A model generated the notes under the pieces. That model was not told the origin of the DNA. It saw only the letters and a list, made by a program, of their open reading frames with translations, and did no database searches. Shown here piece by piece: positions 11,753 to 63,161 of a DNA stretch of 64,000 nt. This DNA is from a virus. The stretch is taken from the IMG/VR virus record IMGVR_UViG_3300037993_001242, positions 32,001-96,000 of that record, one strand, 5' to 3'. The position numbers and the translations under genes were made by a program. The stretch's first letter is position 1; the number at the start of each line of letters is the position of its first letter.

Positions 11753-12784
11753 TCAGGTTGTCAGCGGGTATGGAGCCATGATGGCGTCGACCTGATCAGG
11801 ATGCTTTGATTCCGCGTGCTGTTTAAGCTGTGACCGGAATTTGCGTTCAATGTGGCAGATCGAGCACACAAATGGCTGATCAGTCTCTGGCGCGGGAGCC
11901 GCTTCATCCGGCGGAACCGGCGGCGTTTCATCCGTGGGCACCGGGGGCAGACTTCCACCTTCTGGCACTTCGTCCAGTTCCGGTTCCGGCAGGGGCACCA
12001 CTTCCGCAACAACCGCAACTTCAGGTAGCGGGGCGGATTCGGTTATGGCCGCCGGTTTGCCCGCCACCACCGGCGCGTTGGGGGGAGCCGTGCGCACGAT
12101 GGTATTCATAAAGCCTGTCTCGCTGTCGAGTTGAGCGTTGGTGGTCTCGGCCTTTTTGAGTTGCGCCAGCAATGGTTGTCGCTGGGTCGCAATCTCCGAC
12201 GGCATCTGGAGTAATTCTTTGGGCAAGTCGGCGGGACGCTTGGTCATCGAGGAATCGATGGCATACTTGATCATTGGCACGTCCGACAAGCGCGGCGGTG
12301 TTCCATCTGTATCCGTCACGCCGTAATTCTCCGGCACTTCCCTCGGCTTCTTGATCAAACCGGCGCGCCGCGCCTCGTCCATGGACATAGCAACGACCGA
12401 GGGCTTATTGATCGCCTGTTCCGGTATGTCTCTCGGCTTGGGCATCACCGGCTGACGGACACCGTGTTTGTCCTGCGTAAATTCCGTCACGGCGTGTACG
12501 GACAAGCCATCGCTTCGAGGAGCCACGTTCATGGTGGCCACGGGCACCCGGATCACGGGTACTGGTTTATCGGACATTTCCCGATGCAGTTGCTTGTTGT
12601 TGGCGTAAAGCTCGAAGAACGGGTCATTGATTTTTCGTCCTTGCCGGTCGAGGACATATTCGCCGGGCTGCAAAAAAAGCGTGATGCTCAATTTGGAAAT
12701 CACCAATTGCATGGGCCATTTATTGCCGTTGTAATATCCGACGACGTTGGTCGTGGGCACGGTTGCGGGCACAGTTTTGCTCAT
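11753..12784 (-). CDS. Hypothetical protein with C-terminal C2H2 zinc finger
   Basis: CSICHIERKFRSQLKQHAESKH; Pro-rich linker; start refined to MSKTVP. Confidence 0.7.
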   Translation of the reverse strand: MSKTVPATVPTTNVVGYYNGNKWPMQLVISKLSITLFLQPGEYVLDRQGRKINDPFFELYANNKQLHREMSDKPVPVIRVPVATMNVAPRSDGLSVHAVTEFTQDKHGVRQPVMPKPRDIPEQAINKPSVVAMSMDEARRAGLIKKPREVPENYGVTDTDGTPPRLSDVPMIKYAIDSSMTKRPADLPKELLQMPSEIATQRQPLLAQLKKAETTNAQLDSETGFMNTIVRTAPPNAPVVAGKPAAITESAPLPEVAVVAEVVPLPEPELDEVPEGGSLPPVPTDETPPVPPDEAAPAPETDQPFVCSICHIERKFRSQLKQHAESKHPDQVDAIMAPYPLTT

Positions 12785-12922
12785 GCTTTTTAAGAACGTA
12801 TTTTCGCAGGAGCAAATTGAAAAAATAAAACGGCGGTCGTTCCAACTACGACCGCCGTTAATCAGACTAACCACCAAACCCTCTATGAAACACTTAAACG
12901 GTAAGCCTGCCCTACCAAATCG

Positions 12923-13504
12923 TCAAGACCATTTCCGCGTGAACCACGCCAGCGTTGTCCGTTTCCGCGTTCCGCCCATGGGATAATAATGCGTCGGATA
13001 ACGGTTGTCTTTCAAAACAATGCCTTCATACATCGGGAGATTTCTGGCCCCGCGCAGCAGCCACGCTCTGGTCGGTTTGGGGAACATCCAGCGATGCTGG
13101 ATGAACCTGACCATCTGGAACGCCATGACCTCCCGCTCGTCCACCGACCGATACAACATAGATTTTCCGTCAAGGGCCAACAGGTCAAAAGGGTGAAATT
13201 CTTCTTCGTACACCACGCCGTCAAAAACCGTCCGGTTGGGCAATTTCAGAAAATCGTGCGTATGCTGGAGCGGCTTTTTGTACCACTTGCCAAAGCCATC
13301 CTGAACGTAGAGCCTCTTGTCGACGACCGCCAGACAGGCCCGTTCCCCGGCCAGCAGAGGCTGGGCGCACCACAAGCCCGGTTTGCTGATTTCTTGGTAT
13401 AAGTCCTCGATCAGACGCACAGCCCGCAGCGTGCGGCCCGTAGCGGGGCGCACCGGCTGAAAAGGAAACACCACGCCCGAAACGATGACAATCTTTTCCT
13501 GCAT
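12923..13504 (-). CDS. ATP-dependent ligase-like nucleotidyltransferase lacking the catalytic Lys
   Basis: FDGVV, FDLLALDG, EGIVLK motifs present; motif I reads QPLLAGER rather than xxKxDGxR. Confidence 0.7.
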   Translation of the reverse strand: MQEKIVIVSGVVFPFQPVRPATGRTLRAVRLIEDLYQEISKPGLWCAQPLLAGERACLAVVDKRLYVQDGFGKWYKKPLQHTHDFLKLPNRTVFDGVVYEEEFHPFDLLALDGKSMLYRSVDEREVMAFQMVRFIQHRWMFPKPTRAWLLRGARNLPMYEGIVLKDNRYPTHYYPMGGTRKRTTLAWFTRKWS

Positions 13505-58998: not shown

Positions 58999-59774
58999 AC
59001 TACGACTATTTTAACAACTGGCATCTTGGCGACTGCCTGTGGCAATGCGTGTTCCTGCGCAAAGCCGCGACGGCGCATCCCGATCACAGTTTTACTTTTT
59101 ACTGCCGGGCCGATTACCTCAATCAGCTACAGGAAGTCATCGCCGATCTACCCAACGTCACACTTAAACCACTGGAGCAAAAGACACCGGGCGCTATTGA
59201 CTGCTGGATGGGCACTGGAGCCTACAACGGCAAGCAGTACTGGCACAATCATCCGCAGCGGAACGATGTCGTTTTCTTTTTCATCGACTGGTTCAACCGC
59301 CTGTGCGAGCAATCCAAAATAGAGCCGCTCTTTCGTGACCGAACGGACTGTCTTTTCGAGTATCCGGCGCTCCACAGCATCAATGCCCCGACCCCGGACT
59401 TTGATTATCTGGTCATCAATTCCGCACCCCTGAGCGGCCAATTTAACTGGAACCCGACCGCCATGAACCATCTGATCCAGCGGCTGTCGCAAAAACAACG
59501 CGTCATCACAACCAACGCCTCCGCTGTAACCCATTTATTCTGCACGGAAAAACAAGGCATGACGGTGACACAGATTGGCAACATTTCTTTGCGCGCCAAA
59601 GGCATTGTGATGGTGGCCAACGGCCCTTGCTGGCCCACTTACAATGTCCAGAATTTATCCAAACCACGCGTCGTTTTGCTAAATCAGGTAAAAATTGATT
59701 ATGGCGCTCCCAATCCACACTTCAACAGTACGGAAGCGGCTGAAGCATATCTTCAACAACAAGGACTGCTATGA
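58995..59774 (+). CDS. Glycosyltransferase-like hypothetical protein
   Basis: WHLGDCLW, INSAPLSGQF, IGNISL...GP. Confidence 0.55.
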   Translation: MNYDYFNNWHLGDCLWQCVFLRKAATAHPDHSFTFYCRADYLNQLQEVIADLPNVTLKPLEQKTPGAIDCWMGTGAYNGKQYWHNHPQRNDVVFFFIDWFNRLCEQSKIEPLFRDRTDCLFEYPALHSINAPTPDFDYLVINSAPLSGQFNWNPTAMNHLIQRLSQKQRVITTNASAVTHLFCTEKQGMTVTQIGNISLRAKGIVMVANGPCWPTYNVQNLSKPRVVLLNQVKIDYGAPNPHFNSTEAAEAYLQQQGLL

Positions 59775-60307
59775 CCTATAAAGACGAACTTTGCCGAGCG
59801 ATGAAACACCTTTCAGCCCAACCTAAGATGCGTTTCATCGGCTACAATGTACGTTACAGCCACCGGGCGGAAGGAACCTTGGTTGATATTCCAGAGCAGC
59901 AATTGATCGAAACGCCGGTGGCCGAGAATTTGATCATTGGACTGGCAACCGGCTACGCCCTGCAAAATTTTACCGTCATGGCTTACATCGAGCGCTTCGA
60001 TTTTGTCCTTAACGCGCTTGATGCCCTGATCAATCACCTGTCCAAAATCAAAAGCATGTCGGGCGGCCAATTCAATCCGAACATCCTCATTCGCACCCTC
60101 GTTGGAAATAGAAAATATCCGCTTTTTAGCGGCATGACGCACACACAGGATTTTTCAGAACCTCTTAGCCAGATGTTAAGATTTCCTGTTGTTCAGCTTC
60201 ATACGCCCGATGCGGTATTTAGGGAATATGCCCGCGCTATCGATGAATTGCAGGAGCATTCAACGCTATTGGTCGAATATCGCGACAATTATACACTCGA
60301 ATGTTAA
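59771..60307 (+). CDS. TPP-dependent enzyme E1 beta/transketolase pyrimidine-binding subunit
   Basis: ETPVAENLIIGLATGYAL, RFDFVLNALD, HTQDF. Confidence 0.85.
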   Translation: MTYKDELCRAMKHLSAQPKMRFIGYNVRYSHRAEGTLVDIPEQQLIETPVAENLIIGLATGYALQNFTVMAYIERFDFVLNALDALINHLSKIKSMSGGQFNPNILIRTLVGNRKYPLFSGMTHTQDFSEPLSQMLRFPVVQLHTPDAVFREYARAIDELQEHSTLLVEYRDNYTLEC

Positions 60308-62424
60308 CCAACAAGTACAGCGACCTGAAGATCGTCGGGTTTCCCGACAAACTTCAATCTTTTCGTGATGGGACGATCACGGCTCCCATCTACGTGCGCT
60401 TAAAGCCGATAAATCGTTGCAATCACGATTGTTTTTTCTGCCTCGTTGCGGGCACTCGTGTAGTTACAGAAAATGGTGAAAGTGCAATCGAAAACATTAA
60501 AACTGGCGACCGCGTATTCGCGCCTGATGGAAGCCTGAACACAGTAACCGCCGTAAGCAAACGCCTTGTACATGAAACAGTTATCCTCAAATGCGGCAGT
60601 TATTCCATCGAAGCTTCTCCTGAACACCCGCTACTCACGCTGGAAAGCTGGAAGGCTGCTGGTGAATTTCACAAAGGGGATACCGCCTTTGTGCGCGTGC
60701 GGATGCGGACAAATAGTGAAAGCACACCGCCAAACGTGGAATCTTTACGTGGTAAAACACCAACCAAGAATGGCAGCTTCCGAGGAACATTACCGGCGCA
60801 TATCAAAATTGATGACAGCCAACAACCCAATGAAACGCCCAGAAGTAGCCCAAAAAATGGCGTTATCACGCAGAGGCGTAAAAACAAAATTCAGCCCAGC
60901 ACACCGCGAATTTTTATCAAAAACAGCCCGCCAACGAATGTTGTCCGACAAAAATCCAATGAAAAATCCAAAAATAGCTCAAAAAGCTTTTCGGAATCGA
61001 GTGCAGCGACCAACATCGTTGCACGAATCCGCCTTCAAAGACTGGCTGGAAGCAAACAACTTTCCAATTCAGCACACGGGCAACAATTTCATGTGGATCA
61101 ATCGAAGGAACCCGGATTTCAGAGTAACTGGACAGAAAAAAGCAATCGAATTAACACAAGGCCAGTGCTTCAACAATCATCGTATATTGCGAACAATGGA
61201 GAATTATGCCAGACCAACAATTCAACATTACCAAGCCAGCAAATGGCAATGTCTTGTGATATTCTTAAAAAAGAACACCGAACCTTGTCTACAACTGAAA
61301 AACGCGCTGATAAATTTTATGCTGCCGGAATGCAACTGGAGCGGGGTCTGGAACTACGACAAATTGATTCTGTTCGGAAAATTGCAAAAACTAAATTAGT
61401 CTATAACTTTTCTTGCAGCCCTATTGAAGCTTACGAAGCCAACGGATTTGTGGTTCATAACTGTGTATACGCACAAAGCAACCGCAAAGAAATTCCCGCC
61501 ACCGAAGACGGTCTGGATCACATTATATCCAAAATGCACGAGGACATGAATGAAGCCGACGTGATCCCAACCGACAAAATGCTGGAAGTGCTCGATGACT
61601 TCAAAGAAATCGGCGTGCGCGCCGTGACCTACTCCGGCGGCGGCGAACCGCTGATGCACCGTGACATCGTTCTTTTTATGGAGCGCACCCTGCAATACGG
61701 CATCGATCTTTCGATCATCACCAACGGTCAGTTGTTGCGCGGACGGCGGGCCGAGGTTCTGGCAGCGGCAAAATGGGTTCGCGTCAGCGTCGATTACACC
61801 ACCGCCGGACAGATGGCCTTGTCCCGCCGCGTACCCGAACGCCTTTTTGACGAAGTGCTTGATAATATCCGGCAGTTTGCAAAAATCAAACAACCGGCCT
61901 GCGACCTTGGCGTCAATTACATCATCCACCGCCAAAATTATCACGGGTTGGTGCCTTTCACCAAAGCGCTCAAAGACTGCGGCGTCACCAACGTCCGTTT
62001 CAGCCCCATGTGGATGCCTGATTTCATCAACTACCATGCACCCATTAAAGACGAGGTTGGTGCCCAGTTGCGTGAAGCCCAAAAGCTTGTGGATCATGCG
62101 TTCACGGTCAATTCAACCTTCGATCTCGGCAGCAGCGCGCATCTGCCAAATCGAAGCTATACCCGCTGTTTTTTCATGCAGATGGTGCCCGTGATCGGTG
62201 CAGACCAGAAAGTATACGCCTGCCACAACAAAGCCTACGACCATACTGGATGCCTCGGCTCCATCGCAGACAAACGTTTCAAAGACCTTTGGTTCAGCAA
62301 TGAAACCAAGCGCTTTTTTGAAACACTGAATCCGATGGAGACTTGTCGCCATCAGTGCGCCAACGACTCCAAAAACCGCAACATCCTTAACCTGATAGAC
62401 GCGCACATTGATAATTTCGTATGA
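60301..62424 (+). CDS. Radical SAM/SPASM enzyme containing an intein
   Basis: After splicing CNHDCFF|CVY restores CxxxCxxC; SGGGEPL, ITNG, C-terminal YACH...C. Confidence 0.9.
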   Translation: MLTNKYSDLKIVGFPDKLQSFRDGTITAPIYVRLKPINRCNHDCFFCLVAGTRVVTENGESAIENIKTGDRVFAPDGSLNTVTAVSKRLVHETVILKCGSYSIEASPEHPLLTLESWKAAGEFHKGDTAFVRVRMRTNSESTPPNVESLRGKTPTKNGSFRGTLPAHIKIDDSQQPNETPRSSPKNGVITQRRKNKIQPSTPRIFIKNSPPTNVVRQKSNEKSKNSSKSFSESSAATNIVARIRLQRLAGSKQLSNSAHGQQFHVDQSKEPGFQSNWTEKSNRINTRPVLQQSSYIANNGELCQTNNSTLPSQQMAMSCDILKKEHRTLSTTEKRADKFYAAGMQLERGLELRQIDSVRKIAKTKLVYNFSCSPIEAYEANGFVVHNCVYAQSNRKEIPATEDGLDHIISKMHEDMNEADVIPTDKMLEVLDDFKEIGVRAVTYSGGGEPLMHRDIVLFMERTLQYGIDLSIITNGQLLRGRRAEVLAAAKWVRVSVDYTTAGQMALSRRVPERLFDEVLDNIRQFAKIKQPACDLGVNYIIHRQNYHGLVPFTKALKDCGVTNVRFSPMWMPDFINYHAPIKDEVGAQLREAQKLVDHAFTVNSTFDLGSSAHLPNRSYTRCFFMQMVPVIGADQKVYACHNKAYDHTGCLGSIADKRFKDLWFSNETKRFFETLNPMETCRHQCANDSKNRNILNLIDAHIDNFV
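60439..61461 (+). mobile_element. Intein (341 aa)
   Basis: Block A CLVAGTRV, block B ASPEHPLL, block F VYNF, block G VVHN followed by Cys+1. Confidence 0.92.
60662..61399 (+). CDS. Vsr/DUF559-like endonuclease nested in the +1 frame of the intein
   Basis: LCACGCG, NUMOD3-like NPMK repeats, PTSLHE...NPDF...KAIE...WQCLVIF; GGAAGG 6 nt before the GTG. Confidence 0.75.
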   Translation: MNFTKGIPPLCACGCGQIVKAHRQTWNLYVVKHQPRMAASEEHYRRISKLMTANNPMKRPEVAQKMALSRRGVKTKFSPAHREFLSKTARQRMLSDKNPMKNPKIAQKAFRNRVQRPTSLHESAFKDWLEANNFPIQHTGNNFMWINRRNPDFRVTGQKKAIELTQGQCFNNHRILRTMENYARPTIQHYQASKWQCLVIFLKKNTEPCLQLKNALINFMLPECNWSGVWNYDKLILFGKLQKLN

Positions 62425-63161
62425 GCAACGCACATCCCAGCACCCATATTCCCAATATCCGTCGTCTTGAAATCCACATCACGTATCGGTGCAACCTGCG
62501 CTGTACCCACTGTTCAAACAACATCTCGCAAGCTCCCAGTCAGGAGATCATGCCCGCCGAACGAATCGAAAACCTGCTCAATGAGTCGGCGCGGCTAAAC
62601 TGGCTGTGGGACTGGCTGGTCTTGCACGGCGGCGAACCCACACTGCATCCAGAGTTTGAGCGCATCTGTGCCCTGCTGGCCGATTACAAAAAGCGCTCAA
62701 ATCCCGCCGTGAATCTGTTTGTATGCACCAACGGTCACGGCGAGTTCGTGCGCAAGCAGCTTGCCGTAACGCAACAATACGGCATTACAAACTGCAACAG
62801 CGACAAAAACGGCAGTCCACTCATAGTGTACCACGTTCCGCTTAGCGTCAGTCCTGAAGACTGCGGCGAGGACTACTACCTCGGATGCTTTCAAACCAGC
62901 CGCTGCGGCATATCCTATACCAACAGCGGATTTTACGAATGCTCCCCCGCCGGAGCTTCGGAACGTCTTTTCGGTTATCCACCGCTGGTCGCGGAACTCA
63001 AAGACTTAACCGCAGAAAAATTAGCCGAAGGTTTTAAAGTTCATTGCAAGCACTGCGGATATTCCAGACTGCAATTGATACCCCATCCCGACGCACCCAT
63101 GAGCAAAACTTGGCTCGAAGCCATCGAACGATACAAAAACCGACATGAAACAGCGCACTAA
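62421..63161 (+). CDS. Radical SAM protein
   Basis: CNLRCTHC, HGGEPTLHP, TNG. Confidence 0.88.
   Translation: MSNAHPSTHIPNIRRLEIHITYRCNLRCTHCSNNISQAPSQEIMPAERIENLLNESARLNWLWDWLVLHGGEPTLHPEFERICALLADYKKRSNPAVNLFVCTNGHGEFVRKQLAVTQQYGITNCNSDKNGSPLIVYHVPLSVSPEDCGEDYYLGCFQTSRCGISYTNSGFYECSPAGASERLFGYPPLVAELKDLTAEKLAEGFKVHCKHCGYSRLQLIPHPDAPMSKTWLEAIERYKNRHETAH

Follow-up and report, generated by a model that had tools for sequence, protein, structure and literature searches.

A probable mobile intein with a nested same-strand nuclease gene in the Fe-S motif of a phage radical SAM/SPASM enzyme

How does an intein accommodate a homing endonuclease that is not written in its own reading frame, and what kind of selection acts on two proteins sharing the same nucleotides? 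The question is raised by a radical SAM/SPASM gene in the window, the 64,000-nucleotide stretch analysed here, which belongs to a 199-kb IMG/VR virus record (IMGVR_UViG_3300037993_001242). An original prediction had noted within this gene an intein frame that stays open for 341 codons despite an odd, low-complexity middle, and had placed a complete endonuclease in the +1 frame of that middle. The analysis makes it probable that a mobile class-1 intein interrupts the Fe-S motif of this phage enzyme, and that its nuclease is a nested gene on the same strand in the +1 frame rather than an intein domain.

An intein and a nuclease on the same nucleotides

The region is truly dual-coded. When synonymous codons were shuffled inside the nuclease open reading frame (ORF) and stops were then counted in the intein frame, the window was seen to contain none, against a shuffle mean of 7.3–7.9 (P(0) = 5e-5 or less), while its third frame holds 17–20; the earlier judgement that a stop-free intein frame would be unlikely by chance is thus borne out. 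The check on homologues that had been called for gave the same answer, since the intein frame is free of stops across the nuclease core in each of ten loci tested (shuffle means 3.2–11.9, per-locus P(0) from below 2.5e-4 to 0.02), with 3–17 stops in the third frame. Compared over the same nucleotide columns, amino-acid identity is 35–69% in the nuclease frame and 12–48% in the intein frame, and the most variable position is position 3 of the nuclease codons, which places the nuclease frame under selection at the protein level. Between the Hint parts little beyond the avoidance of stops is selected for in the intein frame, and the proposal of selection on both frames therefore stands in full only for the nuclease.

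This layout is not peculiar to the window. Locus DNA was read for L001–L004, L005–L009 and L012–L015, of which L006 and L012 are copies of L005, and L015, which ends at a contig edge, resembles L013; the nested +1 arrangement is present in the window and in eleven or twelve further metagenomic or viral loci (L001–L005, L007–L009 and L013–L015). Wherever the whole nuclease ORF is on the contig it is enclosed by a radical SAM frame of 630–820 codons, always at +1, and wherever the full region is on the contig the host gene is a single unbroken ORF.

The limits of the intein can be placed to the residue. It begins at Cys47 of the host ORF (60439–60441), runs from CLVAGT to GFVVHN and is followed directly by the Cys codon at 61462–61464. 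Its conceptual removal gives CNHDCFF-CVYAQ, where the intein-free homologues P0168, P0169 and P0170 (77–81% identical to the host protein) read CNHDC(Y/F)F-CVY(A/S)Q; because these homologues have the expected spliced length (366 aa) and show the restored junction, the boundaries are exact. They also show that the intein sits on the third Fe-S cysteine, as had been proposed, the CxxxCxxC motif of the host (Pfam matches Radical_SAM, 7.9e-17, and SPASM, 2.8e-5) being whole only after conceptual splicing, with Cys+1 as the third ligand. Since the intein interrupts this ligand motif, splicing would be needed for any enzyme activity.

Cys1, Cys+1, block B, the terminal His-Asn and a predicted Hint fold identify the insert as a class-1 intein for which splicing is predicted. 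Pfam and NCBIfam intein/Hint models cover only its first ~85 residues and its last residues, the Pfam Hint_2 match (33.7 bits) being over its cut-off and PT-HINT also matching the N-terminal part. An AlphaFold2 (AF2) model built from an 8-sequence alignment is ordered only in residues 1–91 and 290–341 (predicted local distance difference test, pLDDT, 76–98, all beta), and for residues 92–289, in which no amino-acid conservation is seen across loci, it gives pLDDT <50 and no secondary structure. The odd middle of the intein frame is accordingly confirmed, and is predicted to be disordered. H63 and the terminal H340 and N341 are invariant across 8 loci, and block B, SPEH in the window, reads TGEH, SQEH or TAEH in homologues.

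The +1 frame tells a different story. It holds CACGCG, two NPMK repeats and NPDF...IE, has 18 close homologues (526 in total), and is modelled by AF2 with a mean pLDDT of 93.5. Residues 118–239 match E. coli Vsr (1cw0; VIA Z 10.5, root-mean-square deviation, rmsd, 3.5, 116 residues aligned) and the catalytic domain of I-Bth0305I (3r3p; VIA Z 8.9, rmsd 3.3, 97/97 aligned), and the top Foldseek matches (3r3p, 1cw0 and 1vsr, with probability 1.00 for 3r3p and 1cw0) agree, so that the Vsr-type assignment of the original prediction is upheld. Asp152 (in PDF; 61115–61117) is invariant and Glu122 and Glu163 (61148–61150) are nearly so, Glu163 standing 11 residues past Asp152, as at Vsr position 62. 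The further labels given to the protein, NUMOD3-like and DUF559, held in part: the NPM(K/R)xP repeats are conserved, but NUMOD3, Vsr and DUF559 find weak Pfam support, and this in a few homologues only. NUMOD3, for instance, matches 4/56 homologues, all under the cut-off, and weakly the canonical intein P0062, the window protein being unmatched; 'NUMOD3-like' is for this reason a label of motif resemblance only. A profile of the nuclease family searched against PDB sequences returned nothing useful, and PHROGs gave insignificant matches only. The CxCGCG...GH module at the nuclease N-terminus occurs in two copies in L003, L004, L008 and L009 and in three in L007, ~52 codons apart, and in every such locus the first copy overlaps the last Hint-N strand.

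Table 1. Features of the intein-bearing gene and its relatives (window positions unless a locus is named)
Feature	Position	Strand	Remarks
Radical SAM/SPASM host gene	60301..62424	+	ORF open throughout; 707-aa precursor, 366 aa once spliced
N-extein	60301..60438	+	Ends ...CNHDCFF, carrying the first two Cys of CxxxCxxC
Class-1 intein (predicted to splice)	60439..61461	+	341 codons; Cys1 ... His-Asn, then Cys+1
Hint N-terminal splicing part	60439..60711	+	Intein residues 1–91; block B SPEHPLLT; AF2 pLDDT 87–98, beta strands; conserved in 8 loci
Intein-frame linker	60712..61305	+	Residues 92–289; nuclease gene read in the -1 frame; predicted disordered, stop-free
Hint C-terminal splicing part	61306..61461	+	Residues 290–341; LERGLELRQIDS...VYNFSC...GFVVHN; pLDDT 76–97; conserved, also in mini-intein P0209
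C-extein	61462..62424	+	Begins with the third Fe-S cysteine (CVYAQ...)
Putative homing-endonuclease ORF, +1 frame	60662..61399	+	Frame open from 60558; true start uncertain, upstream of the conserved PLCACGCG at 60686
Putative zinc motif CxCGCG...H of the nuclease	60692..60760	+	C43, C45, G46, C47 and H65 invariant or nearly invariant in alignment A1
Two NUMOD3-like NPM(K/R)xP(E/K)(V/I)AxK repeats	60824–60856, 60953–60985	+	N98, P99 and M100 nearly invariant
Vsr-like (restriction-endonuclease fold) catalytic domain	61013..61378	+	VIA and Foldseek matches, conserved acidic residues
5' dual-coded junction	60676..60709	+	Frame 0: Hint strand (D)TAFVRVRMR in the window, (D)SAVVRVRMR when written for the loci together; frame +1: PLCACGCG; both conserved in all loci
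3' dual-coded junction	61337..61360	+	Frame 0: Hint LERGLELR(xIDS); frame +1: nuclease tail (N)WSGVWNYD
Second-Cys inteins	L003 2838–3920; L007 2167–3423; L008 2332–3417; L009		

Frame junctions, translation of the nuclease and competing explanations

At either end of the nuclease the two frames encode conserved protein at once. Mean pairwise nucleotide identity is 0.81 at the 5' junction and 0.91 at the 3' junction, the highest within the intein, vs 0.35–0.7 elsewhere in the element. Both readings of the junctions appear to be structural in the models, in which the Hint strands are confidently predicted and the nuclease tail forms a beta-hairpin inside the Vsr-aligned span. The mini-intein P0209, which is free of nuclease, has the same Hint segments written in other synonymous codons at the junctions, and this synonymous variation agrees with dual coding being what freezes the nucleotides. 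In the window the nuclease frame contains, 8 codons before WSGVW, a -1 slippery heptamer (A_AAT_TTT); the eight other loci examined lack it, and it was rejected as a conserved signal. No recoding signal is conserved among the loci.

Ribosomes on the host gene would, in the proposed course of events, pass through the nuclease gene in the wrong frame and lay down a disordered linker of ~200 residues between the Hint halves, which would then assemble and splice, joining the exteins and restoring the CxxxCxxC motif. The most likely source of the nuclease is separate, low-level translation that initiates internally in the +1 frame, and its most likely targets are intein-free radical SAM alleles, whose cleavage would lead to homing. 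Here we infer splicing activity, the activity and target of the nuclease and the mode of its translation.

Where translation of the nuclease might start was examined along several lines. The original prediction had given it a start of its own, GGAAGG at 60650–60655 followed after 6 nt by GTG at 60662, but this did not survive the comparison of loci, the motif arising from Hint-frame Trp-Lys codons and not being conserved in homologues. Every locus has some start codon 5–41 codons before the first CxCGCG, at a varying position, and the +1 frame is open for 18–78 codons upstream of the first CxCGCG across loci. A scan of 59700–62500 for sigma-70 promoters and terminators found nothing over shuffle expectation upstream of the nuclease. 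Upstream regions in the window look A/T-rich, and together with the counts of Shine-Dalgarno (SD)-like motifs given below this suggests a phage host with SD-independent initiation. Independent expression of the nuclease is plausible, low-level internal initiation being the simplest reading of how it is translated and a frameshift route a minor rival.

Several observations weigh against a mobile intein with a nested nuclease gene. No start codon or ribosome-binding signal of the nuclease is positionally conserved among the loci, and SD-like motifs are not enriched at gene starts in the window, where 6/61 ORFs of at least 150 aa carry one vs a background of 11%. The active-site His of EDxHD/Vsr enzymes is not found 7 residues past Glu163, the family consensus there being F-N-G-G, and catalytic competence is not certain given its absence at the expected spacing. 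Finally, neither Pfam nor NCBIfam yields a significant match for the window's own nuclease.

The first of these points could be turned into an argument for programmed recoding, in which a +1 frameshift near 60680–60700, perhaps with a -1 return near 61337–61360, would produce a Hint-N/nuclease fusion or a little canonical intein with an in-frame nuclease. Such a mechanism would draw support from the junctions being the most conserved nucleotide stretches, from the open +1 frame before the first CxCGCG, from the lack of a conserved start codon, and from distant relatives whose nuclease is in frame. Yet no slippery heptamer is conserved, conserved structured protein in both frames suffices to explain the frozen nucleotides, the mini-intein varies freely at synonymous sites of the same Hint segment, and recoding has no need of an intein frame kept free of stops over 200 codons. 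We consider recoding unlikely as an account of the locus. The more specific notion that the two junctions (60676–60709 and 61337–61360) double as recoding signals, at which a fraction of the ribosomes would enter the nuclease frame by a +1 shift and leave it by a -1 shift, is more doubtful still; if true, one DNA segment would give rise to three products (a precursor that lacks the nuclease and can splice, the nuclease on its own, and a canonical fusion of intein and nuclease), and the element would be a living link between nucleases that stand free and those in frame within inteins.

The missing His bears rather on the idea of a decaying relic, an inactive nuclease ORF held open only through its overlap with an obligatorily open frame, in an intein now vertically inherited. 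Selection on the intein frame, however, cannot hold the +1 frame open or conserve its protein, and a relic would not account for position 3 of the nuclease codons varying most, for the conservation of Asp152, Glu122 and Glu163, or for so confident a structural model, while the sporadic distribution of the element and the mismatch between inteins and exteins argue for ongoing mobility; a relic is therefore improbable. An artefact, namely two compensating single-base errors of assembly or sequencing that mask an ordinary in-frame intein nuclease, has in its favour that adding a base near 60690 and taking one out near 61340 would turn the locus into a canonical one of the P0062 or P0081 kind. It is nevertheless hardly credible, and the doubt about assembly that the original prediction had sought to dispel is excluded by the independent loci, eleven or twelve assemblies from different samples which at 35–69% nuclease identity have the same +1 offset with both frames open; nor can sequencing errors produce stop depletion in the intein frame. 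A mobile intein with a nested nuclease gene remains the best explanation of the locus.

Alleles, insertion sites and mobility

The intein-free alleles lie in syntenic contigs of 85–236 kb. P0168, present in 85- and 236-kb contigs that share as neighbours a TPP E1 beta gene, methyltransferases, an E1 alpha gene and a baseplate J gene, is an empty allele of a related large phage. The P0168 contig further encodes a 922-aa DEAD/ResIII helicase (gene called at 12428–13101, continuing past the reported stretch), whose faint LAGLIDADG_3 match may point to another intein in that genome. The mini-intein P0209 (L011 1639–2085), of 149 aa, occupies the same third-Cys site in a radical SAM gene 56% identical and has the same Hint blocks; no nuclease remnant was found in its other two frames, both of which contain many stops.

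Two insertion points are used. The intein is inserted at the third Cys codon in the window, L001, L002, L004, L005 and L013, and at the second Cys codon, 9 nt upstream (CNQD, then the intein from C to HN, then CxFC), in L003, L007, L008 and L009. Inteins and exteins do not keep step: L003 and L008 have exteins of 42% identity, Hint parts of 69–91% and nucleases of 69%, and L001 and L008, with exteins of 63% identity, differ in insertion site. Taken with the intein-free and mini-intein alleles, this mismatch speaks for joint movement of the Hint parts and the nested nuclease as a single unit.

At a greater distance (32–41% identity), relatives of the nuclease are in-frame domains of conventional inteins, whose hosts include other radical SAM proteins and NrdD, among others. 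A nuclease tree computed with FastTree only, over 145 columns and with moderate support, groups the nested forms together (one clade of 52 rows, support 89), with an adjoining clade holding in-frame radical SAM inteins; that the nested +1 group is a single clade is suggestive only. GTDB species genomes scanned for the nuclease contained no relative, and so no cellular copy at that sensitivity, and a megablast search with the gene drew no match among GenBank phages. Next after the host gene, and overlapping its stop by 4 nt, comes a second, shorter radical SAM gene (62421–63161; CNLRCTHC) without an intein.

Gene callers in the source collections split these loci into a nuclease ORF and a truncated radical SAM ORF, sometimes with a short N-terminal ORF, and in the window the nuclease was called from a Met at 60770 (P0004), without its zinc motif. 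Intact intein genes with a nested nuclease are thus hidden in public protein sets, split or mis-annotated.

Relation to known systems

The original prediction regarded the architecture as atypical, and atypical it is, though no longer without precedent: out-of-frame intein nucleases are known but rare. Contiguous inteins of actinobacteriophages with nucleases in a separate frame have been described by Gosselin, Arsenault and Gogarten (bioRxiv 10.1101/2025.01.02.630785), who report antisense LAGLIDADG, antisense VSR-like and same-strand frame-3 endonuclease VII-like types and propose that they originated when a free-standing nuclease gene invaded an intein. The element described here resembles them in being contiguous, in the unstructured middle of its intein frame and in the nesting of the nuclease in another frame, and a VSR-like type is among theirs. 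Their hosts, in contrast, are terminase, DNA polymerase, minor capsid and thymidylate synthase genes, whereas here the host is a radical SAM gene; their VSR-like nuclease is antisense, whereas here it lies on the sense strand at +1, in a phage record of roughly 200 kb and its metagenomic relatives.

A second parallel is the cyanobacterial dnaX intein with an out-of-frame '+2 ORF' LAGLIDADG nuclease and frame-dependent dN/dS (Phillips, DeSimone and Gogarten, bioRxiv 10.64898/2026.09.14.751524), a case first noted, according to the citation in that work, by Gorbalenya 1998. There too a folded nuclease is encoded in an overlapping ORF across a disordered part of the intein, selection depends on the frame, and a sporadic distribution is accompanied by intein-free and mini-intein alleles. 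It differs in its LAGLIDADG nuclease, its '+2 ORF' and its cellular host gene, as against a phage radical SAM gene here.

Fractured genes, a phage arrangement in which the halves of a split intein flank a free-standing Vsr-like nuclease (Dassa et al. 2009, PMC2677866), share with the present element the phage setting, a Vsr-like nuclease with DNA-binding repeats of NUMOD type (here by motif resemblance) and the overlap of the nuclease 3' end with the C-terminal intein part (6–69 bp theirs, ~80 nt here). They comprise two host ORFs and splice in trans, unlike the single open chain found here, for which cis-splicing is predicted. I-Bth0305I, the prototype of the EDxHD homing endonuclease family (Taylor et al. 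2011, PMC3239194), is likewise bipartite, its catalytic domain of Vsr fold following N-terminal repeats of NUMOD type, which the present nuclease resembles in motif; its repeats are NUMOD2-like, it has no CxCGCG zinc motif and it resides in a group I intron, while in the nuclease described here the EDxHD His is unplaced. The canonical radical SAM inteins P0062, P0077, P0081 and P0094 have a nuclease of the same family (32–41% identity) and a similar Hint C-terminal block (VYNF.C...), two of them (P0062 and P0094) being inserted at the same third Cys of CxxxCxxC. Their nuclease, unlike the nested one, is an in-frame domain without CxCGCG and falls in a separate clade of the quick tree.

The family is a well-supported and deeply conserved addition to a very short list of inteins with a separate overlapping nuclease gene, and among those compared it is the first whose Vsr-like nuclease is on the sense strand and the first located in a radical SAM gene. 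Its stages can be seen side by side, from intein-free and mini-intein alleles to nested +1 forms and, among distant relatives, in-frame ones, with insertion points on neighbouring cysteines, which makes it a good system for the model of intein evolution in which a free-standing nuclease invades a mini-intein, and it could reveal how a linker of 200 nonsense residues is accommodated when splicing is in cis. What is new relative to the systems compared above is the combination of sense strand, +1 frame, Vsr-like nuclease and radical SAM Fe-S motif, and so are how deeply the layout is conserved, its pair of dual-coded junctions, its use of two insertion points and the occurrence together of intein-free, mini, nested and in-frame states.

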